Assembly (NCBI GenBank): GCA_963709585.1
Contig: CAVPXI010000010.1
Coordinates: 1 to 34,297, forward strand
Direction of reading: 5' to 3'
DNA from: Candidatus Dormiibacterota bacterium
GTDB lineage: Bacteria; Chloroflexota; Dormibacteria; Aeolococcales; Aeolococcaceae
DNA: 34,297 bases
In this document: in pieces, positions 1-18,020 of the stretch
How the letters are laid out: every line of letters starts with the position of its first letter
How positions within the stretch are numbered: the stretch's first letter is position 1
Position numbers and translations under genes: made by a program
The notes under the pieces: generated by a model
Database searches by the model: none
Told to the model about the DNA's origin: nothing
What the model saw: the letters and a program-made list of their open reading frames with translations, nothing else

Positions 1-765
1 AGGCCGACGTCGCGCTCGGTAACCGATCCTGCACTTGTCACACCGGACGAGCCCACCGGAGGTAAGCGCCACCGCGAGCCCTAAGGATAGGGCAGCTCGC
101 ACACCGCGGCCGAGCAGGAGTGAAGTGAACGCCCTATCAGAAGCAAGTGCGTCGAGCCACAGATCCTCCGTGTGTAGCAGCACCGACAAGAACTCGCGGA
201 GAAGCTCGGATGAATCCTCCACATCGGTGCGTGACCCGACGATCAATGAGGGTACTAAGAGGCGCAGTGCCTGACATTCCAGTGGATTTGGCTGGTTCCC
301 CTCCGATAAGTCGGCCCAGATACCTAGCGCGCTCCAAAGAGCACGGGAACTGAGTCGCCAAAGAGACAGAGGTTCCCAAGTGTCTGGGAAGTCTTGGTGG
401 GGAAGGCGTTGCGAACACGCGCGGCAATCCACGGAGGGATGCAGGGGGTTGGTACATTCGCCGAGCCGCCCAAATTCACGAGCGAAATCCAGGATTTGGA
501 CATCGGTGCCTTCGTTTAGGCGGACGAATCGGCTGAGGAGTTCGGTTGGCTCGAGCATCAGCGGGGTCGCAAAGACCTCCTGCTGGATATCAGCTGTGGA
601 CATAAGGTCCTGAAAGTGGCCAGCAATACCCAGCTGACCGTGTTCATCTGGGATCAAGGAGAGTACGGGCCAGTTCAGGGTCCGAGCCGCCAGAACCTCT
701 GGGGCGAGTTGGCCGGCGATAGATCGATCAGCCAGTTCTAGACGAACCGAGAGAGGCCTTTTCAT
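1..765 (-). CDS. Putative Zn-finger (CGNR/ABATE-like) regulator, runs off the left edge; not in the ORF track
   Basis: Manual translation from ATG 765 is open for 255 codons to position 1: MKRPLSVRLELADRSIAG...ELLSRFVRL...ILDFAREFGRLG...WEPLSLWR...LAVALTSGGLVRCDKCRIGYRARRRP. Has a C-terminal CxxC and is divergent from the xis-like gene. Confidence 0.7.
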   Translation of the reverse strand, partial: MKRPLSVRLELADRSIAGQLAPEVLAARTLNWPVLSLIPDEHGQLGIAGHFQDLMSTADIQQEVFATPLMLEPTELLSRFVRLNEGTDVQILDFAREFGRLGECTNPLHPSVDCRACSQRLPHQDFPDTWEPLSLWRLSSRALWSALGIWADLSEGNQPNPLECQALRLLVPSLIVGSRTDVEDSSELLREFLSVLLHTEDLWLDALASDRAFTSLLLGRGVRAALSLGLAVALTSGGLVRCDKCRIGYRARRRP

Positions 766-824
766 TGGTTGGATCATGGATTCTAATCAATGCAGCATCC
801 GCTGAGATCCAGCACGATCCGCTC

Positions 825-1040
825 GTGTCCAATACAACCCCGATCGATCGACGGTTGCTGACGATCAGGGAAGCGGCCGAAGCCCTCGCGATCGGGCGTT
901 CCCATGCCTACGACCTCGTGCTCAAGGGGCAAATCGAGAGTGTCGTCGTCGGCGTGCGATGCCGCCGAGTCCCTGTGACCGCGATCGATGACTACGTTCG
1001 CAAGCTGTCGACGCAGGGCGCACCGCGAGGTGGGGCATGA
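825..1040 (+). CDS. Excisionase/AlpA-like HTH_17 DNA-binding protein
   Basis: LLTIREAAEALAIGRSHAYDLVLKGQIESVVVG..RRVPVTAIDDYV is a typical xis-family pattern. Likely start GTG 825; ATGA overlap with the next gene. Confidence 0.85.
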   Translation: MSNTTPIDRRLLTIREAAEALAIGRSHAYDLVLKGQIESVVVGVRCRRVPVTAIDDYVRKLSTQGAPRGGA

Positions 1041-2360
1041 CCGACACAGCCGCCCCGGTGTCCGGCCAGCGTCAGCTCACCGAGCCGAGGGCTGAACGCG
1101 TATCGGGCAGCACAGCGCCTCCGATGGGCTCGTGGCCGGTCCCGCCCGCCGAGGAGGCTTTCCGTGGACTCGCCGGCGATGTCGTCGCCACCCTCCGTGG
1201 GCACACCGAGGCCGACGACGTGGCCCTGCTCATCTCCTTCCTTGAGATCGTGGGCTGTGCCATCGGACCTGGGCCCCACGTGTACGTAGGGGAGGCACGG
1301 CATGGCGTCAACCTGTTTGCCGTCGCCGTGGGCGACACCTCGCGAGCGCGTAAGGGCCACGCCTGGGCGTCGACGCGCGGGCTTGTCCTCGAGGCCGACC
1401 AAACGATGGCCGAGCAGATCGTTACCGGACTGTCGACGGGCGAGGGGCTGATTGAGAGAGTGCGCGATGGCATCGAAGTGCGAGAGTGGAACAAGCAAAC
1501 CAATACCTACGACACTCGGATCGATCCGGGACGCGACGACAAGCGGCTGCTCGCCGTCGAAACGGAGATGGCAAGGACGCTGGAAGTGGCCCGGCGCGAC
1601 GGGAACACGCTCTCCCACATCCTGCGCCAAGCTTGGGACGGCGACCCGTTGGACGTGCTCACTCGGAAGTCACCGATAAGGGCCACGGGCGCTCACATCT
1701 CGGTGTTCGGACACATCACAACTGAGGAGCTGCGCCGTCGAACTCGATGACGTCTCTATCGCCAATGGATTCGCCAACCGGTTCATGTGGCTTCCAGTGC
1801 GCCGTGCGCGGCAGCTAGCCCGACCCGAACCGCTGCTCGAAGCCGATAGGGCACCACTCGTGGCGCGGATTCGCGCGGTGCTCGATGCCGCTCACGGGCG
1901 CAGCCGTCTAGATTTCGATCCCGAAGCCCAGGCCGCTTGGGATGCCGCGTATCCCGCCTTGACGGCGGATCACCCCGGTCTTGCTGGTGCCATGACCGCC
2001 CGGGCGGAAGCACACGCGCGCCGGCTCGCACTTGAGTACGCACTCCTCGACAGCGACCACGCCATCCGCGCTCCGCACATCTTCGCCGCGCTCGCCCTGG
2101 TTGAGTTTGCGGACAGGGGCGTCGCCTACCTGTTCGGCGACCGCCTCGGCGACGGCACTGCCGATACCATCCTCGAGTCGGTACGACGCCGCGGCAAGGT
2201 GACTCGATCCGAGGTTCGTGACATCTTCCACCACCACGTGACCTCGTCGCGTTTGGACGTGGCCATCGCGGGGCTCGTGGCCTCCGGCGCGATCAACGTG
2301 GAGGAGGAGAGCACGAGCGGGAGACCAGTGACGGTGCTCACTTTGGGCACGAAGCGATGA
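1037..2360 (+). CDS. DUF3987/YfjI-family replication-associated NTPase with C-terminal wHTH; +1 frameshift near 1741
   Basis: Motifs VGDTSRARKG, GLSTGEGLI, LRQAWDG, HISVFGHITTEEL; continues in the next frame as LDDVSIANGFANRFMW. ORFs 1037..1750 and 1785..2360 join. Confidence 0.75.
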
Positions 2361-2365
2361 GCTAT

Positions 2366-2434
2366 CACCGCGCGAAAGGCGCGGAAAGCGCGATTAGGGT
2401 GGCTTTCGTCGCTTATGTCGCTTTTCGCGCAGTG
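2366..2434. repeat. Convergent 9-bp iteron-like repeats (3+3) forming an imperfect inverted repeat; candidate origin
   Basis: Plus strand GCGAAAGGC/GCGGAAAGC/GCGATTAGG (2372-2398). Minus strand GCGAAAAGC/GACATAAGC/GACGAAAGC (2428-2402). Outer arms CACCGCGCGAAAGGC vs CACTGCGCGAAAAGC. Confidence 0.6.
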
Positions 2435-2448
2435 GTGGGCGCTGCGAT

Positions 2449-2874
2449 ATGACTTATCTCGACGCTGCTCGCGAGGCGGTGAGGCGGCGGCATCTAGGGG
2501 CGCCCGCGCCAGAAGCGGACGCCGCGGACGGTTCACCGGTCGATGGGTCCGCCAAGTCGATCGAGCCACTGGTGGTTTCCGCGCCGCGGCGGCTCGTCAC
2601 CGACGAGCTCCGCGGCGAGCTGATCAACCATCGCGACGAATTGGTTGCCCTCGCGAGCCGCGAAGACGCAGATGCCGTCTCTTGGCGAGTGGAGGCTATG
2701 AGGGGGCAACTCCCCCCCTTTCCACGTCCGGTACCGCTACTTCTCGCTCGTCCCGACAACCCGTACGTGGCGGGTACTTGCATCTCCTGCGGTGACCCGG
2801 TTCCGGCAGCCCGGTGCGGCCCGTGCCGGGAGGCAGTGCGGCAAGTCCTTCACCATTGGGACACGAAGAAGTGA
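2449..2874 (+). CDS. Hypothetical protein with a TubC-N-like segment and C-terminal Cys4 zinc finger
   Basis: LVVSAPRRLVTDELRGELINHRDEL; CISC...CGPC; lies in the operon after the replication gene. Confidence 0.6.
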   Translation: MTYLDAAREAVRRRHLGAPAPEADAADGSPVDGSAKSIEPLVVSAPRRLVTDELRGELINHRDELVALASREDADAVSWRVEAMRGQLPPFPRPVPLLLARPDNPYVAGTCISCGDPVPAARCGPCREAVRQVLHHWDTKK

Positions 2875-2944
2875 GCGAGAAGCCTTCTCAGACTTCGCCA
2901 CAGTCCGCCCGAACTGGTATTCGCCGCGCCCTTGGGCATATGTC

Positions 2945-3869
2945 GTGAGCGTCACCGGACGCGTCTACAGTGCTACGCGGGTTCGTGGCCTCGCCGACTG
3001 GTCACCGCAGAGTGCCACCCGTGCGCTGCTGGTCCACATCGCCGCCGTCGTCGACGAGTTCGCCGACTATCTCCCGATGACCCTCCGGCAGGTCTTTTAC
3101 CGTCTCGTCGCGACACGCGACTACCCCAAAGACGAGCGGGCATCTGAACGTCTCGGCGAGACTGTCAACCGCGCCCGGCGAGCCGGACTACTCGACTGGG
3201 AGGCCATCCGCGACGATGGCACTACGCGTCTCGACCCCGAAGGGTTCAACGGCACGCCGGATTTCTTGGCGACGGTCCAAGCGTTAGCATCGGCGTACAC
3301 GCGTGACCCAGCGCCGGACCAGGAAGTTGACCTCGAGGTGTGGGTCGAGGCTGCAGGCATGGTCCCGCAGGTAGCCCGCGTCGCGGGACCTTACGGCGTG
3401 CCGGTGTTTTCCGGTGGCGGCTTCGACAGCGTCACCGCAAAGCACGACGCCGCACTTCGGATCGTCGAGCGATCGCGACGCGGTCGCCGGACGGTGGTCC
3501 TGCACATTGGCGACCACGACCCGTCTGGGTGCAGCATCATCGACAGTGCGGCCGCCGACGTCTCCAAGTTCTGTGACGACTACCACGAGCCCGAACTCGG
3601 TAACTTTCCGGCGCATTGCCGTCACCCCAGACCAGGTCGAGACGCTCCGACTCCCCACCGCGCCGCCGAAAGCCACCGATCGTCGCGGCGAACGTATGGC
3701 GTACACGGTGCAGGCCGAGGCGCTCGCCCCACCGATCTTGGCCGAAATCGTCCGCCTGGCCATTGAGACGGAACTCGATCTCGACATTCTCGATCGATCG
3801 CGCCGTGAAGGCGAAGCAGAGCGCCAGCGGCTGCTTAGTGTGCTCGCGACCTTGCCCGAGGAGCCGTGA
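2945..3869 (+). CDS. Topoisomerase VI-A/Spo11-like protein (winged helix + Toprim); +1 frameshift near 3594
   Basis: MTLRQVFYRLV (Tyr-bearing winged helix), EVWVE, VFSGGGFDS, HIGDHDPSG (Toprim DxD); continues as VTFRRIAVTPDQV...QAEAL in the next frame. Confidence 0.7.
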
Positions 3870-3912
3870 CGGTCGGGCCCCTCAACATGGTCGAGTACAA
3901 GGGGCTTCCCTG

Positions 3913-4621
3913 ATGGCGTCCGCACCTCATGGCCGCCGCACTCCGAGGAACACGCGGACGGGCCGCACCAAGGGCTACAGCCGCCAGAAGGGCGGCGCAC
4001 ATCAAGTCGCTTGGCAAGAAGATCCGATCATCCTCGACCGCATCAGGGCCGGTCTCAAGCCATGGCTGGAACGCAGGTCGCCCCTAGAGTGCCTTGACGT
4101 CGTACGCACCTACATGGCCGAAGCTCATCCGGGCGAGCCGCCAATCGGGCTACGGACGATGTACGAGGACCGGGAACGCGCCCAGTCGTTGACCGCTCAC
4201 GATCTGGAGGCGCTCAGGGCGGAACACCTTGCGGAACTCGACCACGTCATGCGACGGGGATGGGAGACGCTGGAGTTCGACGAACCCGAGCAACGCAAGT
4301 CGTGCAGCGTTGCTCGGGATGATCTCCCAGACGATCGAGCGCAAGGCCCGGGTCGATGGAACACTCGCCACGGCGCTGCGGATCGCCTCGATAGCCGTAG
4401 TTCAGTCACCGAAACCAGAGGAGCGAGCCGAGGTCGACATGTCGGACGAGGCGTTTGCGCGCATCTTGGCGGTCGCCATGGATCTGCGGGAGAGCCACGG
4501 GCTGGTCATTGACGCCGGGAACGACTTCGTCTCGCCGCTTCCTCCGTCGCTGCCGGAGCCGAACGGCAAACCGGCATCGGATGATGACGACGGCGTCCTC
4601 GACTATTACGAGCCGGTGTGA
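3913..4621 (+). CDS. HTH protein resembling a phage terminase small subunit; +1 frameshift near 4276
   Basis: IGLRTMYED (helix), LRAEHLAELDHVMRRGW...LLGMISQTIERKARVDG resembles the 'ELxRLDxL..W...L.I.ERRAKLLG' pattern of TerS-like phage proteins. Confidence 0.45.
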
Positions 4622-4921
4622 CCACATCACCACCGAGAAGCTCGACACTCGGCCGACTGAGGAGACCTACTCCGCCGCCAAGTGAAGCGCGGCCGGCACT
4701 TGGCGCTAGCGGGCGAAAAGCGCAGCCACGACGTGATTTCCACGCTCGATCCATGCACACCACTGTGTGGTGGGGGCGGGGCCGTGATTCCGACAGACTG
4801 AGGCGTGCACGGCCAACCGCACGAAGGTCGCCCTAGCGACGATCGGCGGCGATTCAGGCGACGACTCCTCCCTGATCTCAGAAGGTCGCGATCACCCGCG
4901 AGCTTCGCTAGGCTGCGCTAT

Positions 4922-5842
4922 GTGCCGATTCCCGACTACCAGTCCCTGATGCTCCCTGCCCTCCGCGTCCTCGGCGACGGCAAGGAGCATTCCCCGCAGG
5001 ACGTGATCACGCGATTGGCGGATGAGTTTCACCTAACCGAGGTGGAGAGAAAGCAGGTTCTGCCAAGTGGTCGCACTCCGGTGATCAACAATCGCGTCCA
5101 CTGGGCTGTCACTTACATGCAGCACGCCGGACTGTTGGAGAAACCGCGTCGGGCCGTCTGGCGGGTCAGCGCGGAAGGGCAGAAGTTACTCGCCGCTTAC
5201 CCTTCAGCCTTGGACGTTGGGTATCTCAAGCGATACCCGGGCTTCGCTGCGTGGCACAAGGGAGACGCCGGCGAGGGGCAGCAGGTGTCCTCAGCTCCAC
5301 TCTTATCGGGTCCCCAGGAGCCCGAGACGCCCGAGGAGGCGCTCGAACGGATCTGGGGTGCAATCCGTGGACAAGTCGCCAATGACCTGCTCGAAAGCGT
5401 CAAGGCAGGGACCTCGCAGTTCTTCGAGCGCGTCGTCGTGCAGCTACTCGTGGCGATGGGGTATGGAGGTAGCTACGCCGAAGCCGCTCAGGTGATTGGA
5501 CGCGCAGGCGATGGCGGTATTGACGGCCTTATCAAGGAAGACCGGCTGGGCCTCGACACCGTATACGTGCAAGCGAAGAAGTGGGAGGGGTCTGTAGGAC
5601 GCCCAGAGATCCAGAAGTTTGCTGGGAGCCTGGAGGGCGAGAGGTCTCGGAAGGGTGTCTTCATCACGACGTCTTCATTCAGTGCTGAGGCACGCGACTA
5701 TGTGAAGAAGATCGACAAGCGCATCGCGCTCATCGACGGGTCGACCCTCGCGAATCTAATGATCGAGCACAGCGTCGGGGTAACCACTGATCGGGAGTAC
5801 GCCATCCCGAAGGTCGATCCGGATTTCTTCGATGAGGCGTAG
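4922..5842 (+). CDS. mrr: Mrr type IV (modification-dependent) restriction endonuclease
   Basis: N-terminal PIPDYQSLMLP...NRVHWA (Mrr_N); catalytic FERVVVQLLVAMGY...GDGGIDG...YVQAKKW; TAGGCT -10 seven nt before GTG 4922. Confidence 0.93.
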   Translation: MPIPDYQSLMLPALRVLGDGKEHSPQDVITRLADEFHLTEVERKQVLPSGRTPVINNRVHWAVTYMQHAGLLEKPRRAVWRVSAEGQKLLAAYPSALDVGYLKRYPGFAAWHKGDAGEGQQVSSAPLLSGPQEPETPEEALERIWGAIRGQVANDLLESVKAGTSQFFERVVVQLLVAMGYGGSYAEAAQVIGRAGDGGIDGLIKEDRLGLDTVYVQAKKWEGSVGRPEIQKFAGSLEGERSRKGVFITTSSFSAEARDYVKKIDKRIALIDGSTLANLMIEHSVGVTTDREYAIPKVDPDFFDEA

Positions 5843-6008
5843 GGACCCCGCGCCGCAAGCACACCTGCAAGGTCCCAGGGCGCTTTGATCGTCGATACTC
5901 TTGGGTCGTGCCCGAGCGCCTTGGCGAGCTCACCGCTCAGGAGCGGCGGCGGCGCTCGAAGGCAACTGACGAGCGCGGCGGGCTTCGTGGGATATGGGTT
6001 CTAGCGCC

Positions 6009-8489
6009 ATGGCCATCAAGAAGTCCGACCTGTACGCCTCACTCTGGGCCTCCTGCGATGAGCTGCGCGGCGGCATGGATGCCAGCCAGTACAAGGACTA
6101 CGTCCTGTTCATGCTGTTCATTAAGTACATCACCGACAAGTACGGCAGCAGCAGCGACTTCGCTCCACCAGTCACGATCCCCAAGGGCGCGAGCTTCAAT
6201 GACATGCTTGCGCTCCGCGGCAAGAGTGACATCGGCGAGAAGATCAACACCGAGGTCATCGGACCGCTCGTGCTGGCGAATGACCGGTTGGCTCGCAGCG
6301 ATTTCCCCGACTTCAACGATTCCAACAAGCTCGGCGAAGGACAAGCGAAGGTCGAGCGGCTGACCAACCTGGTCAACATCTTCGCGAGCCCGCAACTCGA
6401 CTTCTCGCAGAATCGCGCCGACCACGACGATATCCTCGGGGACGCCTACGAGTACCTGATGCGGCACTTCGCCACCGAGAGTGGCAGGAGCAAGGGGCAG
6501 TTCTACACCCCGGCCGAGGTCAGCCGCGTGATCGCAAAGGTGATCGGCATCTCGCCCAGCAAGGCGAAGGCGTCGACGACCGCGTACGACCCGACCTGCG
6601 GCTCGGGCTCACTGCTTCTCAAGGTGGCTGCCGAGTCCGGCAAGCACATCACGCTCGAAGGGCAGGAGAAGGACGGGACCACGGCTGGCTTGGCCCGCAT
6701 GAACATGATCCTGCATGACTTCCCCACAGCGAACATCCTGCAGGGCAACACCCTGGCCACGCCCAAGTTCAAGGACGGCGAGGCGCTTCGTACCTACGAC
6801 TACGTAGTCGCCAATCCGCCGTTCTCCGACAAGACCTGGACCACTGGCATCGCGCCAGCGAAAGACCCGTTTAAGCGCTTTGAGTGGGGCGAGCCGCCCG
6901 CCAGGCAGGGCGATTACGCCTACCTGCTGCACATCATCCGCTCCATGAAGGGGACGGGCAAAGCCGCCTGTATTCTGCCCCACGGCGTCCTCTTCCGCGG
7001 CAATGCCGAGGCCAGTATCCGCCAGCAGCTCGTCCGCTCAGGCTACCTCAAGGCCATCATCGGCCTGCCCGCAAACCTCTTCTACGGCACAAGCATCGCC
7101 GCCTGCATCGTGGTGCTCGACAAGGAGAACGCCGCCGGCCGCAAGGGCGTGTTCATGATCGACGCCTCCAAGGGCTTCAAGAAGGACGGCCCCAAGAACC
7201 GCCTGCGCGAGCAAGACATCCACCATATCGTCGACGTCTTCTGCAAACAAGCGGACGTTCCTCGCTATGCCCGGCTGGTGTCGTTGGACGAGATCACCGA
7301 TCCGAAGAACGACTTCAACCTCAACCTGCCCCGCTATATCGACAGCTCTGAGCCCGAAGACCTTCAGGACATCGACGGTCACCTGCGCGGTGGCATCCCG
7401 GAGCGTGATCTGGACCTGCTCGGCCCGTACTGGAAGGTGCTACCCACTGTTCGCGGCGTTCTCTTCGAGTCCGCGGGCCGCCCCGGCTATGCGCGCCTGA
7501 AACTGCCGCTCGCCGATGTGAAGCGGGCCATTCTCGGCCACGCCGAATTCGCCGCCTTCCAGCAGAAGGCGACCAAGGGGTTTGCCGACTGGCGCAAGGC
7601 CATAACGCCGCGCCTTACCGGCTTCGACAAGGACGGCCACCCTAAGGCACTGATCGAGACCATCGCCGAGGATCTCCTGGCCGCGTTCCGTGAGGCACCG
7701 CTCCTCGATGTCTATGACGTCTACCAGCACCTCATGGACTACTGGGCCGAGACCATGCAGGACGACTGCTACCTGATCTCCGCCGACGGCTGGGTGAAGG
7801 GCGGCCAGCCGCGCGAGATCGTTCAGGTCAAGAACAAGGAGAACAAGCTCACCTGGCCGGAGCCGCACGATTACTTGAAGGGCAAGCGGCGCTTCAAATC
7901 CGACCTGGTTCCCGCGCCGATCCTCGTCGCCAGGGACTTCGTCGCCGAACGCGATGCCATCGAAGCGCTCGACAATCAGCTCGCTACGCTGGAGCAGCAA
8001 CTCGACGAGATGCGGGAGGAGAACAGCGGCGAGGAAGGGCTGCTCACCGAGGTGATCGAGGGTGAGGGCGACAAGCAGAAGATTGCCGCGAAGGCCGTGA
8101 AGGCGCGGCTGAAGGAGATCGGCAAAGACCCCCTCTACGCCGACGAGCGAACAGCGCTCGAATCGTACGCTGCCCTGCTGGACCAGCAGACCCAGACCAA
8201 GGCCAAGCGCAAGGCCGCACAAGAGGACCTGGACAACAAGGTCGACGCCAAGTACCCCAAGCTCACCGAGGCTGAGATCAAGACGCTGGTAGTCGACGAC
8301 AAGTGGATGTCGCGTCTATCGGCCGCCGTGCAGGGCGAACTGGATCGAGTGTCGCAGACCATCACCGGCCGCCTCCGCGAGCTGGCCGAGCGCTACGCCA
8401 CGCCGCTGCCCAAGCTCGCCGACGAGGTCGCGACGCTCGCCTCTCTGGTCGATGACCACCTTACGAAGATGGGCGTGGTATGGAAGTGA
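6009..8489 (+). CDS. hsdM: Type I R-M methyltransferase subunit (m6A)
   Basis: LWASCDELRGGMD, GQFYTP, YDPTCGSGSLL, NPPF motif IV; long coiled-coil C-terminus. Confidence 0.96.
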   Translation: MAIKKSDLYASLWASCDELRGGMDASQYKDYVLFMLFIKYITDKYGSSSDFAPPVTIPKGASFNDMLALRGKSDIGEKINTEVIGPLVLANDRLARSDFPDFNDSNKLGEGQAKVERLTNLVNIFASPQLDFSQNRADHDDILGDAYEYLMRHFATESGRSKGQFYTPAEVSRVIAKVIGISPSKAKASTTAYDPTCGSGSLLLKVAAESGKHITLEGQEKDGTTAGLARMNMILHDFPTANILQGNTLATPKFKDGEALRTYDYVVANPPFSDKTWTTGIAPAKDPFKRFEWGEPPARQGDYAYLLHIIRSMKGTGKAACILPHGVLFRGNAEASIRQQLVRSGYLKAIIGLPANLFYGTSIAACIVVLDKENAAGRKGVFMIDASKGFKKDGPKNRLREQDIHHIVDVFCKQADVPRYARLVSLDEITDPKNDFNLNLPRYIDSSEPEDLQDIDGHLRGGIPERDLDLLGPYWKVLPTVRGVLFESAGRPGYARLKLPLADVKRAILGHAEFAAFQQKATKGFADWRKAITPRLTGFDKDGHPKALIETIAEDLLAAFREAPLLDVYDVYQHLMDYWAETMQDDCYLISADGWVKGGQPREIVQVKNKENKLTWPEPHDYLKGKRRFKSDLVPAPILVARDFVAERDAIEALDNQLATLEQQLDEMREENSGEEGLLTEVIEGEGDKQKIAAKAVKARLKEIGKDPLYADERTALESYAALLDQQTQTKAKRKAAQEDLDNKVDAKYPKLTEAEIKTLVVDDKWMSRLSAAVQGELDRVSQTITGRLRELAERYATPLPKLADEVATLASLVDDHLTKMGVVWK

Positions 8490-9718
8490 AGCCTGGCTAC
8501 AAGCAGACCGAGGTTGGGGTTATCCCGGAGGATTGGAAAGAGGCCCAGGTTGACGACCTGGCTGTAAAAGTCGGAAGCGGAGTCACACCTAGAGGAGGGA
8601 ACGCCAACTACCGGGAGTCCGGCCGACCTTTCGTGCGAAGTCAGAACGTTGGATGGGGACAGCTCCTACTCGACGACCTCGTTTACATAGACGACGACAC
8701 CCACCGCACCTTCCTAGCAACGGAACTTTGTGACCTTGATGTTCTCCTGAACATCACCGGCGCCTCAATTGGTCGCTGTGCCATTGCCAACTCATACGTA
8801 GCCGGCGGCAATGTCAATCAGCATGTCTGCATCATAAGAACGGCGCCCGGACGAGTGGCCCCTCAGTTCGTTAGCTACTTGCTTCTCTCGGAATTGGGCC
8901 AGCGTCAAATTGAAAGCTTTCAGGCTGGAGGGAATCGTCAGGGGCTTAACTTTGGTCAGATCCGTTCAATCCGACTACCCCTTCCACCCACAAAGCGAGA
9001 GCAAGAAGCGATCGCGACTACGTTGAGCGACGTGGATGCGCTACTCGACGGACTGGATCGCCTGATCGTCAAGAAGCGCGACCTCAAACAGGCCGTGATG
9101 CAGCAGCTACTGACCGGTCAGACCCGTCTCCCCGGCTTCCACGGCGAGTGGGAGGTGAATACACTTGAGACGTTAGCAGACTGTCTCGATGGCGTTCGCG
9201 TGCCACTAAATGAGACACAGCGTGCGCAGATGCGAGGCGATGTTCCCTATTGCGGAGCGAATGGCGTGCTGGACTACGTCAGCGGCTACGTCATCGACGA
9301 CGACATCATCTTGATGGCTGAAGACGGTGGCTACTTCGATGAATACGCAACACGCCCGATCGCATATCGGATGAAGGGCAAGTGCTGGGTCAACAATCAC
9401 GCTCACATCTTGAAAGCGAAGTCCGGATACGACCAAGGGTTCCTCTTTCACTCGCTAGTTCACAAGAACATCCTGCCCTTCTTGGCGAGCGGAACGCGGG
9501 CGAAGCTGAACAAATCTAAAATGACCAAGATTGAGATTAGGGGCCCAGTTGACGAGGCCGAACAGACTGCCATCGCCGCCGCGCTTTCGGATATGGACGC
9601 CGAGCTGGCGGCCCTCGAAGCCCGGCGCGACAAGACCCTCAACCTCAAGCATGCCCTGATGCAGGAGCTGCTCACCGGCAAGACGCGGCTAGTTCCGGCG
9701 GGGGCGCGCGATGCCTGA
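8480..9718 (+). CDS. hsdS: Type I R-M specificity subunit
   Basis: [14 protein letters not shown]; two TRDs, each followed by conserved EQ.AIA..LSD.D...MQ.LLTG.TRL helices. Confidence 0.96.
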
Positions 9719-12700
9719 GGAACCCCGCTCCGAGCGCAAGACGCAGAACCGCGTCGTCGCCCTGTTCACAGACAAGGCGCGGGTCGACTGGCTCGGCTAC
9801 CGCTATCTCGGCGAGTGGAACAAACGAGATAACAACCGCTCTATCGAGACGGTGATCTTCCGCGACAACCTGACAAGCCGGGGCTACTCCGCGGCGCACA
9901 TCTCCGCCGCGTTGCAGAAGCTCGAGACCGCGGCTGACTCGACGGGCGTCACGCTCTACCAGGCCAACCTACGCACGTACCAATTCCTACGCTACGGCGT
10001 GCCGGTGCAGATCGCCGCGGGCCAGGCGCACGAGACGGTGCACCTTATCGACTGGGGACACCCGGAGAAGAACGACTTCGCGCTGGCCGAGGAGGTGACG
10101 CTGAAAGGCGGCTACGAGCGCCGGCCGGATCTCGTGATCTACATCAACGGCCTCGCCATCGCAGTGATCGAGCTCAAGCGAAGCTCGGTGGAGCTGGCCG
10201 ACGGCGTGCGGCAGCTCATCACCAACCAGGAGGAGATCTTCAACAAGGCCTTCTTCAGCGCCGTGCAGCTCGTGCTAGCGGGCAGCGACTCACAGGGGCT
10301 GCGCTATGGCACCACCGGCACGCCGGAGCAGTTCTTCGTGGAGTGGAAACACGAGGCGAGAGATGTGACAGCATCCCGCGCTGCGCCTTCCGCCGGAGCG
10401 CTGCTTGACCGGCCGCTGGCGCAGCTCTGCAACAAGACACGACTGCTTGACCTGATCCGCAACTTCATCATCTACGACGCCGGCCAGAAGAAGGTGCCGC
10501 GGCCTCACCAGTTCTTCGGCGTGAAGGCCGCGCAGGACCGCATCGCCAGGCGCGAGGGTGGCGTCATCTGGCACACCCAGGGGAGCGGCAAGAGCATCGT
10601 CATGGTGCTTGTCGCCAAGTGGCTGCTGGAGCACGACCCGGATGCGCGCATCCTCGTCATCACCGACCGTGACGAGTTAGACAAGCAGATCGAGGGAGTA
10701 ATGAAGAACGCCGGCGTCATCGGCGCCGAGTTCGCCCTCGCCGCGCATCACGTCCCGGGCCGAGTTCGTGGAGAAGCTCGGCGCGGCCACGCCGCGCCTC
10801 CTGTGTGCGCTTATCCACAAGTTCGACGTGGCCGACCTCAAGGGCGACCCGCCCCCGGTCAGCGGTCGCTTCTATGTGTTCGTGGACGAGTGCCACCGCA
10901 CCCAGAGCGGCGACATGAACAAGCAGATGAAGCGCTGGCTGGAGGGCGCGATCTTCATCGGTTTCACCGGCACACCGCTACTGCGCAAGGACAAGAAGTT
11001 AACGCGAGATGTGTTCGGCACTTACATTCACACCTACAAGTTCCAAGAGGGTGTGGCCGATGGCGTCATTCTGGACCTGAAGTACGAGGCTCGGGATGTG
11101 CCGCAGCGCCTCACCTCGCAGGCCGCTATCGACCGATGGTTCCAGCAGAAGACCAAGGGACTTAACAACTTCCAGAAGGCTGTGCTGCGCAAGCGCTGGG
11201 CGACGATGGAGGAACTGATGAGCGCCGGCGAGCGCAAGCAGCGGATCATCGCCGACATCATCGAGGACTTCAGCTTGAAGCCGCGGCTGAACAACGATCG
11301 CGGCACGGCTATCCTGGTCTGTGCCTCGATCTATGACGCATGCCACTACTACCGGCTGTTCCAAAACACGGGCTTCCGGCCGTACTGCGGGATCATCACG
11401 TCGTACGAGCCGAACCACAACGCGATTTCCCGCGAGCCTGCCAACAGCGACGAGCGCTACAAGTTCGACACCTACACGCAGCACGTTCTCAAGGCGGGAC
11501 AGACCACCAAGCAGTACGAAGACGAAGCCAAGCGCCGCTTCATCGAGGAGCCGGCGAACATGAAGCTGCTGATCGTCGTGAGCAAGCTGCTGACCGGTTT
11601 CGATGCGCCGAGCTGCACCTATATCTACCTCGACAACGAACTGCGGGACCACAACCTGTTCCAGGCCATCTGCCGCACCAACCGTCTCGACGGCGACGAT
11701 AAGGAGTACGGCCACATTGTCGACTTCAAGGAGCTGTTCGGTGAAGTGGAGGAGGCGATCGCCGTGTACAGCTCCGACGAGCTCGACACGGACGAGGGCA
11801 GTGGTGGCGAAAACAACGTCCACCTCAAGGACTGGCTCGATGAGGGCAAGAAGAAGCTCAACGAGGCCCGGGAGGCGCTGCGCTACCTGTGCGAGCCGGT
11901 GGCAGTACCCCGCGAGGTTGAGCAGTACCTTCATTACTTCTGCGGCGATGCCGCCAATCCGAACGCGCTCAACGAGACTGAGGCGGTTCGGGTTTCGTTC
12001 TACAAAGCCGCTGCCGTCTTTGTCCGCGCCTACGCCGCCATTGCGCAGAATCTCACGGAAGCCGGTTACACGGACGATGAGGCGCACGCGCTGCAGAAAG
12101 ATGTCGAGTTCTACAGTGAGATCCGCTCGGCGATCAAGAGGCACTCGGGTGAGGAACTCGACGTCAAGCCCTACGAGGCGGACATGCGGCACCTCCTCAA
12201 CAGCTACATCCAGGCTGACCCGGCGGCTGGCCTGGGAGAGCTTGGCGAGATGTCGCTGACCGAAGTGATTATCGAGACCGGGATCAACGACGCCATAGCT
12301 CGGAAGCTCAACGAGAAAGGGAATCTCTCGAAGAACGCTATCGCGGAAGGAATTATCAACAACGTCCGCAGGACCATCATCCGGGAGCAGTTGACCGACC
12401 CCCGGTTCTACGAACTGATGTCGACGTTGCTCGACGACCTCATCAAACAGAACCGGACCGACGCAGCCGCGTATGAGGAATTCCTTCGGAAGGCGGAGGC
12501 GCTGGTCAAGCGGCTGCTATCAAGGGAACCCGATGAAGGTGTGCCGGCAGCGCTGCACGGGAAAGCCGAGGCAACGGTGATCTACCGCAACCTGCCACGG
12601 ATTCTCGCCGCAGGCAGCGACGGGACTTACCGGGTCGCGGAGGCCTCTCCGGAATACGGGGACGTACGCCTGAGGTTGGCGCTCGAGATCGACCGTGTGA

Positions 12701-12843
12701 TGCGCGAGCGAGCTCCGGCGGGGTGGAAGGGGGACCAGGCGCGCGAGGCGCAGGTGCTGAACGCGCTGTTTCCTCTGCTCCACCGCGACCGCGCCGCAAC
12801 GCTTGCGCTGTTCGAGCTCATCATGAATCAGCCCGGTTACTGA
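9711..12843 (+). CDS. hsdR: Type I R-M restriction subunit; +1 frameshift near 10731
   Basis: RRPDLV...IELK nuclease, WHTQGSGKS Walker A, then [24 protein letters not shown]. Deleting one T restores ...[18 protein letters not shown]. Confidence 0.93.
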
Positions 12844-13559
12844 TGGAAGAGACGATTGAATTCGGCGATATCGCCATCGCCCTGAAGCGCAAGGACGTCA
12901 AGCATGTCCATCTAACGGTGCATCCGCCGAGCGGACGCGTCACGCTTGTCGCTCCCAACCCGACCCGCCCTGAGGCCGCTCGCGCCTATGCGGCATCCAA
13001 GCTCGGTTGGATACGAGAACAGCAGGCTAAGCTGCGTGAGCAAGCGCGGGAGACACCGCGCCAGTTCGTTGAGCGTGAGAGCCATTATCTCTGGGGCAGG
13101 CGCTACCTGCTCTCTGTGAGGGAAGAGGAGGCAAAGCCCGCCATCCGCCTCGGCCACCGCGACATCACGCTCACGATGCGCCCTGGTAGTAGTAGGGCGC
13201 AGCGTGAAGCAGTCGTGCATGAGTGGCACAAGTCCCTCTTGCACGGCGCGGTTCGCGAACTGATCCGGAGGTTGGAACCGAAGATGGGCGTCGAGGTAGA
13301 AGAGTATTTCCTTCAGCGCATGAAGACTAAATGGGGCGGCTGCAACCCCAGGTCGCGGAATATCCGCTTGAACACCGAACTCGTGAAGAAGCCCAAGGAT
13401 CTCCTTCGGTACGTTGTCGTCCATGAGATGCTTCACCTGCTCGAACCGACCCATAACGATCGATTTATCGCGCTGATGAGCAAGCACTACCCTGCATGGC
13501 GCGAGGCCAGAGCTGAGTTGAACGAGCTGCCCTTGGGCGCGACGGCATGGAAGGAGTAG
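12843..13559 (+). CDS. YgjP/DUF45 (SprT-like) zinc metalloprotease associated with type I R-M
   Basis: MKTKWGGC, IRLNTEL, YVVVHEMLHLLEPTH (HExxH); TGATG overlap with the hsdR stop. Confidence 0.9.
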   Translation: MEETIEFGDIAIALKRKDVKHVHLTVHPPSGRVTLVAPNPTRPEAARAYAASKLGWIREQQAKLREQARETPRQFVERESHYLWGRRYLLSVREEEAKPAIRLGHRDITLTMRPGSSRAQREAVVHEWHKSLLHGAVRELIRRLEPKMGVEVEEYFLQRMKTKWGGCNPRSRNIRLNTELVKKPKDLLRYVVVHEMLHLLEPTHNDRFIALMSKHYPAWREARAELNELPLGATAWKE

Positions 13560-13924
13560 CGAAACGGGCCCCGTGCACCGAACGCGACCCCAGCCGCAGA
13601 CTAGCCGGTGATGCTCCGAAGCCACCCGAATCCGTAGATCAGGATCGACTCGGACGTCTAACCGCCACCTCTGCGACGGGGGCTCACATTGGAGCTATAG
13701 CCGCAGCGGTTAGGCGAATCACTGTTAGGTAGCCCTGGGAAGCGGTTATTGGGCTCGCGCCCGATGGCAGCCATAAGCGCGCCACCTCCGAGAGCCACCC
13801 CGCGGCGAGACTCATCGGTCTGGGGCCTCGCGGAATAGCGCGCGACGGCTGGTCGACAAATGCGTCGCAGACTTGGCGCGGATCTGGTCACGCGCCGCAG
13901 CCCGGCCTATCCTCCGCCTGACAG

Positions 13925-15397
13925 ATGCGCTGCCTTATTGACACAAACGTAGTCATAGCGCTTGACCCTGCCTCCTCCGATCTCGAGGCCGGGGCTGCAA
14001 TGGCTGCCGCCCTGATGGGCGAGTTGCACCGGCACCGTCACCAGGTGTTCGTCCACCCTGCTGTGCAGGCGGACCTTGGCCGCGATCGCGACCCAGCACG
14101 CGGCGCGGCGCGTCGAACGTTGGCAGCCAAATACGTTGTCCTTGAGGCCCCGCCGCCACTTTCCGTTCTAGATCCAGGTCTCGTTCGCGACGCGAGCTCG
14201 CATGATCAGGCAGACTTGGCAATGCTCGCCGCCGTCGTTGGCAATGCGGTCGACATATTCATTACTGACGACGCTGGCATCCACCGGCGAGCTCGCCGCG
14301 CGAACGTAGCCGATCGCGTCCTGACTGTCGTGGACGCACTCTCGTTTCTGCGGACGATCGCGAGCCAGGACATACCCCCCCCGCCTTTTGTTGAGGACGT
14401 CCCTCTTTACAGTGTGCCCGATCAAGATCCAATTTGGATTGGACTGCGAGACGACTATCCTGGGTTCGATCTGTGGCTCTCACGAACGAAGCGTGCTGGA
14501 CGCCGCGCCTTAGTCGTCCGGTCGCTTAAGAACAGCTTCGCCGCCGCGATCTGCATCCTGAAGGACGCTGACGACCAGTTCGAGCTCGGAGGCTGGGTCG
14601 TCAAGCTCTGCACATTCAAGGTCTCAGATGACTTCCGAGGCTATCGATTTGGCGAACTGTTGCTCAAGGCTGCCTTTGGCTACTGCACGCGACGCGGGGC
14701 AAACAAAGCTTGGGTGACCGTGTACCCGAAGCATGCCGAGCTTGTGGATCTCTTCGAAGACTTCGGCTTTGAGTTGGCACGAGCACTCGAGGGAGGAGAA
14801 CTACTGTATGTGAAGACGTTTGCGGAGACCTCCACAATTGCGTGTCAAGACACGCAGGGCTCTCACTGTCTCGATTGGCATGTTCGGTTTGGGCCCCCAG
14901 CGCTTCACGTTCGGACCGGGCACGTCTTCTTGGTCCCTGTGCGACCCGAGTATCACCGGCGCCTCTTTCCCGATGCTGAGCTGGCGCCTACCCTGCCGCT
15001 GGAGTTCGATCCGATTGCTAACGCGCTGCGCATGGCGTACCTATCGAACGCTTCGACTCGCACCGTCACTCAGGGCGCCGGGCTACTCTTCTACCGAAGC
15101 CAAGAGAGTCAGGGGGTGTACGCCATCGGAGTAGCAGAGGGGAGCCTAGTCTCAAACGACGCCAGCGAGATCATTCGGTTCGTTGGGCAGAGGACGGTGT
15201 ACTCAGATGAAGAGATCACTCAGCTCGCTCAGAAGCAGGTTCTGGCGATACTATTCCGGCAAGATCGGATTCTATCAACCCCAATATCGTTGTCAGAGTT
15301 GACTTGCAATTCCGCCATTGGCGGAGCCCCTCAACAAATCTCACTCATCCGATCGGAGGCCACACCATGGTTAGTGCGGCGGCTGGCTCTCGCGTAG
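13925..15397 (+). CDS. PIN-GNAT-EVE/PUA-like three-domain fusion protein
   Basis: PIN: LIDTNVV, DQAD, FITDDAGI. GNAT: KLCTFKVSDDFRGYRFGELLL...FEDFGF. C-terminal: VPVRPEYHRRLFPD...NALRMAYLS...LLFYRS...AIGVAE. Confidence 0.8.
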   Translation: MRCLIDTNVVIALDPASSDLEAGAAMAAALMGELHRHRHQVFVHPAVQADLGRDRDPARGAARRTLAAKYVVLEAPPPLSVLDPGLVRDASSHDQADLAMLAAVVGNAVDIFITDDAGIHRRARRANVADRVLTVVDALSFLRTIASQDIPPPPFVEDVPLYSVPDQDPIWIGLRDDYPGFDLWLSRTKRAGRRALVVRSLKNSFAAAICILKDADDQFELGGWVVKLCTFKVSDDFRGYRFGELLLKAAFGYCTRRGANKAWVTVYPKHAELVDLFEDFGFELARALEGGELLYVKTFAETSTIACQDTQGSHCLDWHVRFGPPALHVRTGHVFLVPVRPEYHRRLFPDAELAPTLPLEFDPIANALRMAYLSNASTRTVTQGAGLLFYRSQESQGVYAIGVAEGSLVSNDASEIIRFVGQRTVYSDEEITQLAQKQVLAILFRQDRILSTPISLSELTCNSAIGGAPQQISLIRSEATPWLVRRLALA

Positions 15398-15816
15398 CCC
15401 TCATGAGCGTTCGCCCTCGCTGGGCCGACGCTTTGTTGACCGGCAACAAGACAGTCGAATTGCGGCGCGCCAGCATCGCTCCCGACATCAGTCACGCGCT
15501 CATCTACGCAACTTTGCCCGTGGGAGCCATCGTTGGGTGGTTTGAAGTCGATTGCGTAGAACGCGCTTCACCCACTGATATCTGGAAAAGGTGGGGGCGG
15601 TCAGCCGCCGTTAGCAGAGCAGAGTTCGAAGCCTATTACGCCGGGGCCTCGAGAGCCGTCGCGATCGTAGTCAAATCCGCGCACGCGCTAAGCCGCCCGA
15701 TCCCCCTACGTGAATGGGGACATCTTGTCCGCGCGCCACAGAGCTTCGTCTACGTTGAAGGTGCTTTGGCCGCATCGCTTGGCATGTCGGGGATTAGCCC
15801 GTCCATCGCAGCATGA
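15367..15816 (+). CDS. ASCH/PUA-domain protein
   Basis: LMSVRPRWADALLTGNKTVELRR (GxKxxExR), IYATLPVGAIVG, EFEAYY, APQSFVY; overlaps the upstream gene by 31 bp. Confidence 0.85.
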   Translation: MVSAAAGSRVALMSVRPRWADALLTGNKTVELRRASIAPDISHALIYATLPVGAIVGWFEVDCVERASPTDIWKRWGRSAAVSRAEFEAYYAGASRAVAIVVKSAHALSRPIPLREWGHLVRAPQSFVYVEGALAASLGMSGISPSIAA

Positions 15817-15891
15817 TCGGCGATTCTTGCGTCGCGGCGATCGCATGTAGGCACGCGGTCGCAGCCGTGGCGATAGTCATCCGCTAGCGAG

Positions 15892-17094
15892 CTAACGCAG
15901 AACCTTCGCCAACGCAGCAAGGGCGTCAGCCTGCACGGCAGGTGAGACGTGGCTGTACGTGTCAAGCGTCAACGAGATCTGGGAATGCCCAAGGATCTCC
16001 ATGACCACCCGAGGCATGACACCCAGAGCAAGCAGGAAAGAAGCACTTGTATGCCGCAGATCATGAAACCGCTTCCGAGGCAGACCTGCGGCGGCCAGAT
16101 GAGCCTGGAAGGTGTGGGTGACGTCAGCTGAGTGGAGTGGCCGACCTATCGGAGTTGTGAACACTAGCCCCCATTGCTCCGCCCAGTAATGGCTCGCCAG
16201 CCGCTCTTGAGCTTGGCGGGTGCGATGGGTTCGTAGGGTGTCGATCAGTCCCGATGGCAGGGGGCCAATCGGTCGGCGGCTACGGTCACTCTTCGGTTCC
16301 ACGAGCATGAACCCATTGGGACCGCGTTGAAGCGACTTGCGGACGTGGAGCACTCGATTCTCAAAGTCGACGTCGTCCCATGTCATGCCAAGAATTTCGC
16401 CTTGACGCATCCCAAGAGCCAGTGCGACCGAATAGAGAGCTTCAAGGCGGTCGCCTCTGACCGTGTCGAGCAACCTGCGAGCTTGTTCTGTTGTGAGGGG
16501 CTCCACTTCACGCTTAGGAACGCGAGGGCTATGGGCGAGGGCCGCCACGTTGCGGCTCACCATGCCCCAGCGAAGGGCTTGATTAAGAGCATTCCGGAGC
16601 ACAGACCTGATGTAGTCCACGCGACGTGGCGACAGCCCGGATGCGAGTTTCCGATTCAGCATGGCTTGCACTTGGGCGGGCGTAAGTCGGTTCAGGCGGA
16701 CCTTCCCAAGTTCGGGCTCGATGTGGAGCCGAACAAGGTCCTGGTAGCTACGGTAGGTCGAGGGCCGCACCTTGGTCTTCGCTGTCCCTTCAAGCCACTC
16801 TTGTAAGAACTGTTCAACTGTCCCGCGTTCAGGCGGAATCGGTACTCCCTCGCTGGCGGCCCTCACTCCTTGCGCCACTTTGGCTGCAACTTCGACCCGG
16901 GTCTTGCCCGTATACCACTTCCGGCGACCGCGGTCCAAGGTGACGTACCCGTACCAAGTCCCGTCCTTGCGCTTGGAGATGCAACCTTCTCGATTGCCTC
17001 GGCGACCCCGGCGCTTTCGAGGCTCCGAAAGTGCCTCTGGCGCTCCAACTGTTGTAACAACTGTTGTGTTGGGGCTACCCGCTGCTTCGCTCAC
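15892..17094 (-). CDS. int: Tyrosine recombinase / phage integrase
   Basis: Arm-binding N-terminus (RGNREGCISKRKDGTW); catalytic LGMRQGE, PKS, RFHDLRH, ILGHS, TYSH. Confidence 0.96.
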   Translation of the reverse strand: MSEAAGSPNTTVVTTVGAPEALSEPRKRRGRRGNREGCISKRKDGTWYGYVTLDRGRRKWYTGKTRVEVAAKVAQGVRAASEGVPIPPERGTVEQFLQEWLEGTAKTKVRPSTYRSYQDLVRLHIEPELGKVRLNRLTPAQVQAMLNRKLASGLSPRRVDYIRSVLRNALNQALRWGMVSRNVAALAHSPRVPKREVEPLTTEQARRLLDTVRGDRLEALYSVALALGMRQGEILGMTWDDVDFENRVLHVRKSLQRGPNGFMLVEPKSDRSRRPIGPLPSGLIDTLRTHRTRQAQERLASHYWAEQWGLVFTTPIGRPLHSADVTHTFQAHLAAAGLPRKRFHDLRHTSASFLLALGVMPRVVMEILGHSQISLTLDTYSHVSPAVQADALAALAKVLR

Positions 17095-17134
17095 CAGGCA
17101 ATTATAGCCCTGGAATCGTATTCGGATCCGCCAA

Positions 17135-17207
17135 TGCCCGCTCAGGGATTCGAACCCTGGACCTTGGGATTAAGAGTCCCCTGCTCTACCAACTGAGCTA
17201 AACGGGC
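17135..17207 (-). tRNA. tRNA-Lys (anticodon CTT), CCA not encoded
   Basis: GCCCGTT TA GCTC AGTTGGTA GAGC A GGGGA CTCTTAA TCCCA AGGTC CAGGG TTCGAAT CCCTG AGCGGGC A folds as a cloverleaf; TAGAAT -10 upstream. Confidence 0.96.
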
Positions 17208-17232
17208 CAGAGCGCTCGATTCTACCCGGGGG

Positions 17233-18020
17233 TCATGGGCGCATCGGACCGGCACCGGAGCCGACCCGCCCTGCGCGACGCTCTCCGCTGAGCCACACCA
17301 TCGCCCGGTACTGCTGAGCCAGTCGCATCCGAAGGGGCGGCGGTGACGGCGAAACCGATCCCGAGATCGGCGACGTCGTCCGCTCTTCGATCGCCCGGCG
17401 CAGATCCGCAGCCCCGGTCCCCGGGAACACGGTGAGCACCCGACCCAGATCGTGCTCGCCGAAATGACTGTCCCCTGCCCCAAGCGCGGCCCCAAGCTGC
17501 TCGCGATGCTCGGCGTAAAACGAGTCGAGCAGACCCCACGTCCTGGGCAGGACGGGCGCGGTATGGCGTACTTCGACCCCATCGAAACGCCGGCTGCTAA
17601 GAGCTGTCGAGCCCTCCCGGGCGTCATCGAAGCAAACCATGTCGGCATGAACGGGTGAGCGATCACGGCGAGGCCACCGGCATCGTGGATGGCGTCAACT
17701 GTGTCTTCGACCGACATGTGCATTCGGATCTGGCGCTCCAGGAACAGCCCGACGATGTGAATCCCCGGAGGGAAGGCTGCGGTTACCTCCTCGCCCCGGA
17801 CCACGTCGACGCCGAGCGCCGCGCCGATCTCGATCGCCGGTCCAAGCTCGGAGATCGTGTCGTGGTCGGTGATGCAGAGAACGTTGAGCCCGATCGCGGC
17901 AGCCGCCCGAACCAGGTCCTCGGCGCTCACCATCCCATCGCTGGCGAGGGTATGCGCATGGATCTCGGCCAGGCCGAGCCCATCGCCGGCGCGCGCATGA
18001 GTGCGCGCTGTTTGCTTCAC
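17233..18020 (-). CDS. PHP-domain metal-dependent phosphoesterase; frameshift near 17595
   Basis: EIHAHTLASDG, CITDHD, GEEV, AHPF, then FDGVEV...GAGDSHF in another frame. Confidence 0.85.

Follow-up and report, generated by a model that had tools for sequence, protein, structure and literature searches.

A PIN-GNAT-EVE and ASCH gene pair on an integrative island of a Dormibacteria contig belongs to the PDC-M11 family and may act as a toxin-antidote module

We analyzed a 34,297-nucleotide (nt) contig of Candidatus Dormiibacterota bacterium (GenBank assembly GCA_963709585.1, contig CAVPXI010000010.1), hereafter the window, and followed up two overlapping genes on its + strand, gene A (13925..15397) and gene B (15367..15816). 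Gene A encodes a fusion of a PIN domain, a GNAT acetyltransferase domain and an EVE-like PUA-fold domain, and gene B encodes an ASCH protein. The pair is not new: it is one more ordinary representative of the (PIN)-GNAT-EVE plus ASCH family, which PADLOC catalogues as the candidate system PDC-M11. Protein A matched the PDC-M11A model (PDLC04421) with an E value of 9.9e-154, residues 1-487 falling on positions 1-484 of the 486-position profile, and protein B matched the PDC-M11B model (PDLC04425) over its full length (E = 7.4e-35). The closest characterized relative of protein B is ZmASCH of Zymomonas mobilis and not the amidohydrolase YqfB, to which a sequence-only reading of the window had compared it. 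We put the probability that the pair is a toxin-antidote conflict module at about 0.5.

The name PDC stands for phage defence candidates, and a preprint describes these as drawn from genes embedded in restriction-modification (R-M), BREX and DISARM loci, or 'guilt by embedding' (Payne et al. 2024). The architecture itself was described earlier. In Bell, Wolf & Koonin 2020 (PMC7641849), which credits it to Iyer et al. 2013, (PIN)-GNAT-EVE operons almost always encode an ASCH protein, the PIN-containing form is often close to type I R-M genes, an AAA_17 ATPase gene is often present, and no module is given as experimentally characterized. The sequence-only reading had described the architecture as noted in comparative genomics and uncharacterized, in agreement with that account. 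The window pair shares with these operons its domain order, its adjacent ASCH gene and its proximity to type I R-M genes. It differs in that a Pfam scan of the neighboring genes found no AAA_17 ATPase gene alongside, and in that the EVE domain of the window copy falls below Pfam detection; there is no essential difference from the operons of Bell et al. or from PDC-M11.

An overlapping two-gene operon had been called in the sequence-only reading, and both open reading frames (ORFs) are present. The ORF of gene A encodes 490 amino acids (aa). Its public record (P0001) is a 402-aa form whose start was called further downstream, so that most of the PIN domain is missing; because relatives of A span 99-100% of the 490-aa length, the longer form is the right one. 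Gene B had been listed as a 170-aa ORF starting from a TTG codon (15304..15816, + strand). We prefer the ATG at 15367, which gives a 149-aa protein (15367..15816, + strand) and a 31-nt overlap with gene A. This start is the most likely one because a GGAGG ribosome-binding site, read from the sequence at 15356..15360 (+ strand), precedes it by 7 nt and falls within the last part of gene A, because B homologs from 80 loci start at residue 1-2 of the 149-aa form, and because the protein database entry for gene B is also the 149-aa form. Scanning 13400-16000 for promoters and terminators yielded no informative signal on the + strand.

The two genes are inherited together across a wide range of organisms. 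A scan of one genome per species identified 157 stretches encoding relatives of A, and the best 80 were kept as loci. These belong to the Actinomycetota, Chloroflexota, Myxococcota, Planctomycetota, Verrucomicrobiota, Armatimonadota, Acidobacteriota, Desulfobacterota and other phyla. A homolog of B lies directly downstream of A in all 80 loci, and the junction overlaps in 74 of the 75 loci examined, with a mode of 28 nt when B starts are assigned by rule of thumb. Because the same gene order and overlapping junction recur across loci of many phyla, the pair is a real two-gene unit and more than a chance arrangement. Over 68 loci, pairwise distances of A and of B were correlated (r = 0.78, whereas the highest value among 500 permutations was 0.12), which reflects joint inheritance of the two proteins and is not evidence of binding. 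At an E value of 1e-30 or lower, the family comprises 1043 clusters at 50% identity. The pair was found on 31 plasmid records, and the partners on rhizobial plasmids are annotated as helix-turn-helix (HTH) proteins. One of 116 clusters holds a natural A-B fusion (P0091, 636 aa, from a metagenome contig) in which residues 1-493 correspond to A and residues 497-633 to B; the fusion may be genuine, or a stop codon may have been lost in a short contig.

Members of the family are also carried by phages. In Escherichia phage PhiR47_2 (locus L082, PV340567.1), a pair without a PIN domain (2947..4375) is annotated as 'GevT toxin' and 'GevA antitoxin' and sits between cI and kil, where lambda has rexAB. 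GevT (357 aa) aligned with residues 160-462 of A (hhalign 99.9%, E = 4e-32) and GevA with B (hhalign 100%, E = 3e-41), and PADLOC assigned both to PDC-M11. The phage pair is thus homologous to A and B and has the same gene order and overlapping genes, while GevT differs from A in having no PIN domain, in lying in a lambdoid phage immunity region and in bearing a name known from database annotation alone. The GevT/GevA pair was present at an identity of at least 99% in 275 of 5426 complete E. coli genomes, in lambdoid prophages and always on the chromosome; among the eight best E. coli records listed, five are labelled O157:H7. The Methanothermobacter provirus psiM100 (locus L083, NC_002628.3) encodes the same pair as ORFD and the overlapping ORF5 (2501..4346). 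ORFD is a PIN-GNAT-EVE protein with 25.7% identity over 91% of A, and ORF5 is an ASCH protein (hhalign 99.9%). An 'inserted fragment IFa' sets psiM100 apart from psiM2; ORFD lies in this fragment except for a short stretch past its end, and ORF5 starts beyond it.

All four domain calls of the sequence-only reading (PIN, GNAT, PUA-like and ASCH) held up against Pfam searches, residue conservation, structure models and EVE hits within the family. The AlphaFold model of protein A, built on an alignment of 53 family members, has a mean pLDDT (predicted local distance difference test score) of 90.9. The GNAT domain (residues 154-304; 14384..14836, + strand) contains a Pfam Acetyltransf_1 match above the curated cut-off (residues 184-282, E = 2.8e-6), and these modelled residues aligned with RimI (2cnm) with a Z score of 16.8 and a root-mean-square deviation (rmsd) of 2.6 over 140 positions, which confirms the GNAT fold at the level of the model. 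A VIA-align structure search with the whole of A returned hundreds of GNATs at Z scores of 15-17; the search was filled by GNAT chains and is informative for this domain only, and not for the PIN or C-terminal domain. Positions G239, G243 and E244-K248 are nearly invariant in the family. The Foldseek matches of the A model include a GNAT described as a 'bacterial toxin' (7byy, E = 3e-5).

The PIN domain (residues 1-150; 13925..14374, + strand) matched Pfam PIN_3 weakly over residues 2-116 (E = 0.011, below the cut-off). Its acidic positions are kept in the family alignment (D6 in 51/53, D or E at position 50 in 53/53, D97 in 52/53 and D116 in 53/53 members), and by their language-model features residues 1-150 group with PIN clusters (0.94, 173 shared features).

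For the C-terminal domain (residues 305-490; 14837..15394, + strand), a Pfam search of the window's own copy gave no hit. Among the 53 family members, 25 others matched Pfam EVE (PF01878) at an E value of 1 or lower, the best at 2.1e-6. Searched with Foldseek, the whole A model gave ZmASCH as its top match (E = 2.6e-8, TM score by target 0.76-0.80, approximately 155 columns). Foldseek gives no aligned range, and we placed this match on the C-terminal domain because a profile of B aligns with residues 329-490 of A. Compared with the B family, the C-terminal domain gave an hhalign score of 82.6% (E = 9.6e-6, 138 columns), and it does not carry the ASCH Lys/Glu motif of B. A profile search of this domain against the PDB returned weak matches only (RPRD2 4flb, E = 0.007; 2kku, E = 0.034; the EVE protein 1zce, E = 0.44). 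Residues 305-490 are probably an EVE-like PUA-fold reader domain, matching the classification of Bell et al., and the profile alignments suggest that this domain and B are distant homologs.

Protein B matched Pfam ASCH above the cut-off (E = 1.4e-4), and its motif G26-N-K28-T-V-E31-L-R33 is the canonical GxKxxExR ASCH octapeptide. In the window protein and its homologs from the 80 loci, K28, E31, R33, Y47, P51 and Y90 are invariant (81/81), and G26 is kept in 79/81. A profile of 57 homologs matched ZmASCH (PDB 5GUS/5GUQ) over its full length (positions 1-142, E = 2.1e-30). The structural model of B (pLDDT 92.0) aligned with chain 5guq_A of ZmASCH with a Z score of 18.7 and an rmsd of 1.9 over 133 positions (29% identity), and the next chain in the structure search was 2kku, at a Z score of 11.3. 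YqfB (9kyf_A) reached a Z score of 9.7 over 94 positions and TRIP4 (9kyk) a Z score of 9.6, both far below ZmASCH. Further structural neighbors at Z scores of 8-9 include the DNA modified-base readers McrB-N, THYN1 and VcaM4I. Pfam found no HTH or ribbon-helix-helix domain in B.

ZmASCH binds nucleic acids and cleaves single-stranded RNA in a Mg-dependent manner in vitro, and mutagenesis showed that Y47, K53 and S128 contribute (Kim et al. 2017). Two of these residues are retained in B, as Y47 (81/81) and S126 (68/81). According to a 2026 preprint, each of the 19 ASCH proteins assayed, ZmASCH among them, took N4-acetylcytidine (ac4C) off tRNA in vitro, and TthASCH, EOLA1 and TRIP4 strictly require the Lys and Glu of their GKER octapeptide. 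It presents ASCH proteins as tRNA ac4C erasers, proposes a regulatory role for them and defines a YqfB-type subgroup by a GK[T/S]R octapeptide. Protein B does not fit that subgroup, having at the sixth position Glu31, which is invariant in the family, and carries the form G-K-E-R that is the common ASCH motif. The sequence-only reading had taken Glu in place of the catalytic Thr of YqfB as a sign that B might bind rather than hydrolyze; with GKER the common motif and its Lys and Glu reported as essential, that caveat is outdated.

The likeness of B to characterized ASCH proteins is graded accordingly. ZmASCH is a full-length homolog with the GxKxxExR motif, Y47 and the serine of the PQS motif; it differs in having K53 where B has Gly53, and its activities were reported outside a GNAT-EVE context. 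The GKER-type tRNA ac4C deacetylases (TthASCH, EOLA1 and TRIP4) share with B the ASCH beta-barrel and the Lys and Glu of the octapeptide. The YqfB-type enzymes have the beta-barrel as well. Both groups are far more distant from B than ZmASCH is, and none is encoded beside an acetyltransferase toxin. YqfB further differs in having Thr where B has Glu, in its length of approximately 100 aa and in acting on the free nucleoside.

From these comparisons we propose a working mechanism. The conserved acidic residues of the PIN domain, the conserved GNAT loop and the invariant Lys, Glu and Arg of B suggest that the PIN domain, the GNAT domain and B are all likely to be active enzymes. Protein A would be the effector, with its EVE-like PUA domain docking it on a nucleic acid that is most likely RNA or tRNA, perhaps where a base is modified. 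The GNAT domain would then acetylate the target with acetyl-CoA, or the PIN domain would cut it, or both, and translation or growth would stop. Protein B, translationally coupled to A through the overlapping frame, would keep A harmless, with the coupling setting the A:B ratio. It would most likely be an amidohydrolase that removes the acyl mark via Lys28 and Glu31, and perhaps would also bind A. On infection or under another stress, the balance would shift in favor of A. RNA as the target would fit both the typical RNase activity of PIN domains and the nucleic-acid binding and single-stranded RNA cleavage of ZmASCH. In its most specific form, the proposal is that the GNAT domain sets an N-acetyl mark of the ac4C type on tRNA, other RNA or DNA, that the PIN domain cuts the same or the marked target, and that B erases the mark until infection. 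We advance this version tentatively, as a possibility that remains doubtful. An eraser role for B is suggested because it combines homology to ZmASCH, the reported removal of ac4C by ASCH proteins and the invariant Lys/Glu pair, and a conflict or mobile context is indicated by the integrase, tRNA, Mrr and type I R-M genes of the window and by the provirus, plasmids and lambdoid prophages that carry relatives. An acetylation writer/eraser pair had already been suggested in the sequence-only reading; the idea fits the findings and is now better founded. The analysis establishes the two genes and their strict pairing, the domains, the family membership, the conserved catalytic-type residues and the homology of B to ZmASCH; which protein is toxin and which antidote, what the substrate and the trigger are, whether acetyl marks are written and erased and whether phages are affected are inferred.

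Two kinds of known system resemble the pair. The GNAT toxins of type II toxin-antitoxin systems (TacT, AtaT and KacT) are single-domain proteins whose antitoxins bind both DNA and the toxin. They share with A the GNAT fold and, as proposed here, a growth-arresting acetylation of a component of translation, but A has three domains and its partner is an enzyme-like ASCH protein. In DarTG, a phage defence system, the toxin ADP-ribosylates DNA and the macrodomain of the antitoxin removes the mark. This arrangement of a nucleic-acid writer toxin with an eraser antidote serves as a working analogy only, since DarTG is not homologous to the pair and uses a different chemistry.

In the window, the pair lies on a mobile island, as the sequence-only reading had placed it, after Mrr and type I R-M genes. 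The order around it is Mrr, hsdM, hsdS, hsdR, a YgjP-like metallopeptidase gene, A, B, a tyrosine integrase and tRNA-Lys(CTT), so that the pair is the last cargo before the integrase and the tRNA. The integrase (15892..17094, - strand) matched Pfam Phage_integrase (E = 2.3e-23) and Phage_int_SAM_3, and ARAGORN placed the tRNA-Lys(CTT) gene at 17135..17207 (- strand). The tRNA gene is the likely integration site of the island. A search of 1-17300 for an attachment-type direct repeat of its end, which would fix the far boundary of the island, found none. The G+C content is 0.59-0.67 over 1-17000 and 0.64-0.72 beyond. Because the window is the whole contig, the island may be cut or run off the contig end. 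Mrr (4805..5842, + strand) was identified by Pfam and by PADLOC (mREase_IV, E = 1e-85), and Pfam identified hsdM (5994..8489, + strand), hsdS (8480..9718, + strand) and hsdR (9711..12843, + strand).

One extra base near 10731 breaks the hsdR gene into two ORFs (9711..11165 and 10768..12843). The match to intact HsdR stays in one frame as far as 10691 and is picked up again at 10780 in a different frame. Contigs of four public sequencing runs, which come from two studies, are without one letter at 10731, and two of these contigs agree with the window at every other letter; both ORFs are in frame once that letter is removed. Because these contigs restore the frame, the split is probably an assembly indel error or a strain variant, and we regard the R-M system as probably complete.

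The remaining genes of the island and its flank are less informative. The YgjP-like (SprT-like) metallopeptidase gene (12723..13559; Pfam E = 2.5e-55) directly follows hsdR, between the R-M genes and the pair, and has no PADLOC match. Its true start is probably later than the listed GTG, because that start overlaps the end of hsdR by approximately 120 nt and the Pfam match begins only at residue 63. Six ORFs in 1..4512 (1..777 on the - strand, 1037..1750, 1785..2360, 2415..2795, 2792..3766 and 3616..4512) had no PADLOC match, and five of them, all but 2415..2795, were searched against Pfam with no match; they are unexplained island cargo or in part spurious ORFs of high-G+C DNA. Beyond the integrase, a PHP-domain ORF (17142..18020, - strand) reads through the tRNA-Lys gene. 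Its PHP match covers residues 20-82 only and its tail looks out of frame. An ORF in another frame (17233..17640, - strand), a candidate for the C-terminal part of the PHP gene, had no Pfam hit; the break may be a second indel in the contig.

To place the window locus among its relatives, we compared their surroundings. A tblastn search with the window proteins against the 80 loci gave few hits with the Mrr, Hsd, YgjP and integrase queries (HsdM in 4, the integrase in 3 and Mrr in 1 of 80). Single-sequence tblastn is insensitive, and PADLOC scans followed. Of the 41 loci whose flanks were complete, 37 entered these scans, with 269 crude ORF calls lying at most approximately 4 kb from the pair; the other four loci were left out, as were 23 ORFs. 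The E value threshold was 1e-5 for the 19 loci scanned first and 1e-10 for those after them. Clear defence neighbors were present in 12 of the 37 loci, a raw count with no background control. They comprised a helicase of BrxH/DpdF type and mad2 (L003), SoFic (L004), AbiTii with a type IIG fragment (L016), PDC-S11 with type I S and M genes (L020), a type I R gene (L021), type I S and R genes (L027), type II methyltransferases (L043 and L059), an Mrr-like enzyme (L045), CapP (L049) and IetA with IetS (L065); in the remaining locus (L068) type I M/S genes on one side and an R gene on the other enclose the pair. Weaker defence hits occurred in a few further loci, for example L026 and L051. The L068 arrangement, in a candidate-division genome (3915..13809), reads hsdM, a PDC-S05 gene, hsdS, A, B, a small ORF and hsdR. 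The association with defence genes is real but partial. Of the comparisons that had been proposed with the sequence-only reading, the one with PADLOC thus yielded a PDC-M11 match for both proteins, and the one with homolog neighborhoods yielded clear defence neighbors in only about a third of the loci.

Several observations weigh against a toxin-antidote module that works by writing and erasing an acetyl mark. One study (PMC12988326) describes PDC systems as unvalidated, and our literature searches found no experiment on any family member, whether under the name PDC-M11, GNAT-EVE or GevT/GevA. A full-text search for 'GNAT-EVE' returned only Bell et al. 2020 and its preprint; texts containing 'PDC-M11' list the system as detected, and we found no test of it among them. 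Searches for GevT/GevA found no paper behind the names, and searches for an ASCH antitoxin with EVE and acetyltransferase domains returned nothing relevant. The presumed roles of toxin and antidote come from the GevT/GevA annotation in another database record. The GNAT match is generic and uninformative on substrate. In B, the position of the contributing K53 of ZmASCH is Gly53 and is variable in the family (Q in 33, K in 14, G in 11 and R in 10). The reported RNase activity of ZmASCH is weak (Kim et al. 2017), and the 2026 preprint reports that ZmASCH was inactive on free ac4C and caused no significant decrease of ac4C in E. coli cells. Finally, in 25 of the 37 scanned loci no clear PADLOC neighbor was found within approximately 4 kb, again with no background control.

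The result from E. coli cells is also in keeping with an antidote or regulator that is not catalytic, in which B would bind A, compete for its ligand or repress the operon through its PUA fold with no removal of a mark. The distant homology between B and the C-terminal domain of A (hhalign 82.6%) and the existence of the P0091 fusion are consistent with this, as are the HTH-ASCH fusions for which Bell et al. suggest that the ASCH protein binds DNA and may regulate expression; the HTH annotation of the rhizobial plasmid partners points the same way. However, the window B has no HTH domain by Pfam, and K28, E31 and R33, at positions reported to be catalytic, are invariant in 81/81 sequences, a triad that a pure binder does not need. 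We regard a non-catalytic B as possible but unlikely. A second alternative is that the GNAT-EVE protein acetylates a DNA base as a self or epigenetic mark that the ASCH protein reads or edits, with the PIN domain acting on unmarked or foreign nucleic acid, loosely as in R-M. Acetylation of a DNA base by GNAT-EVE was proposed by Iyer et al. 2013, as relayed by Bell et al., who also take an ASCH-HsdS fusion in Methanohalophilus to imply that ASCH reads modified DNA (PMC7641849). R-M genes adjoin the pair in the window and enclose it in L068, and the modified-base readers among the structural neighbors of B would fit as well. But RNA is what PIN domains and ZmASCH act on, the phage homologs bear toxin and antitoxin annotations, and no DNA-directed activity is known for any member, and we therefore consider DNA marking improbable.

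The sequence-only reading had also offered an abortive-infection backup analogous to PrrC, in which the pair would sense phage inhibition of the neighboring type I R-M system and then kill by cutting or acetylating tRNA. The position of the pair downstream of hsdMSR, with hsdR probably intact, suits such a guard, as do the type I R-M parts next to the pair in L020, L021, L027 and L068, the frequent association with type I R-M noted by Bell et al. and the embedding of PDC genes in R-M, BREX and DISARM loci (Payne et al. 2024). This suggestion fared poorly. No type I R-M part was found within approximately 4 kb in 33 of the 37 relatives, the HsdM query matched only 4 of the 80 loci, and the PIN-less pair of lambdoid phages sits between cI and kil with no R-M adjacent. 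A figure legend of Payne et al. 2024 shows PrrC as obligately embedded in a type I R-M locus; neither A nor B has a PrrC match in PADLOC, and the pair has no sequence relation to PrrC and no ATPase sensor. We rank a PrrC-like guard low, as very improbable. Ranked lower still is a housekeeping or stress role, in which translation would be tuned by an acetyl mark that A writes on tRNA or rRNA and B erases, and the pair would play no part in conflict. The proposed regulatory role of ASCH proteins as tRNA ac4C erasers (2026 preprint) agrees with it, and two thirds of the relatives have no clear defence neighbor. Against it stand the patchy spread of the pair across many phyla, its carriage on the integrative island, plasmids and prophages, its presence in only 275 of 5426 complete E. 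coli genomes, the fusion of a PIN nuclease to the putative writer and the toxin/antitoxin annotation of the phage pair.

As a single instance, the window pair adds little, being one more copy of a family present in bacteria, archaea, plasmids and temperate phages. The family itself matters because it is widespread and strictly paired, joins PIN, GNAT and PUA-like reader domains to an ASCH protein, and has no published biochemistry that we could find. The contribution of this analysis is the link from B to ZmASCH and from there to the reported tRNA deacetylase activity of ASCH proteins, with the Lys/Glu pair invariant in B. This link makes it a testable question for the whole family whether bacteria use reversible base acetylation as a weapon. 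If the toxin-antidote module does work as a writer and eraser of acetyl marks, it would be the first toxin-antitoxin or abortive-infection system based on base acetylation, a chemical parallel to DarTG, and would provide the first physiological role in bacteria for ASCH 'eraser' enzymes.

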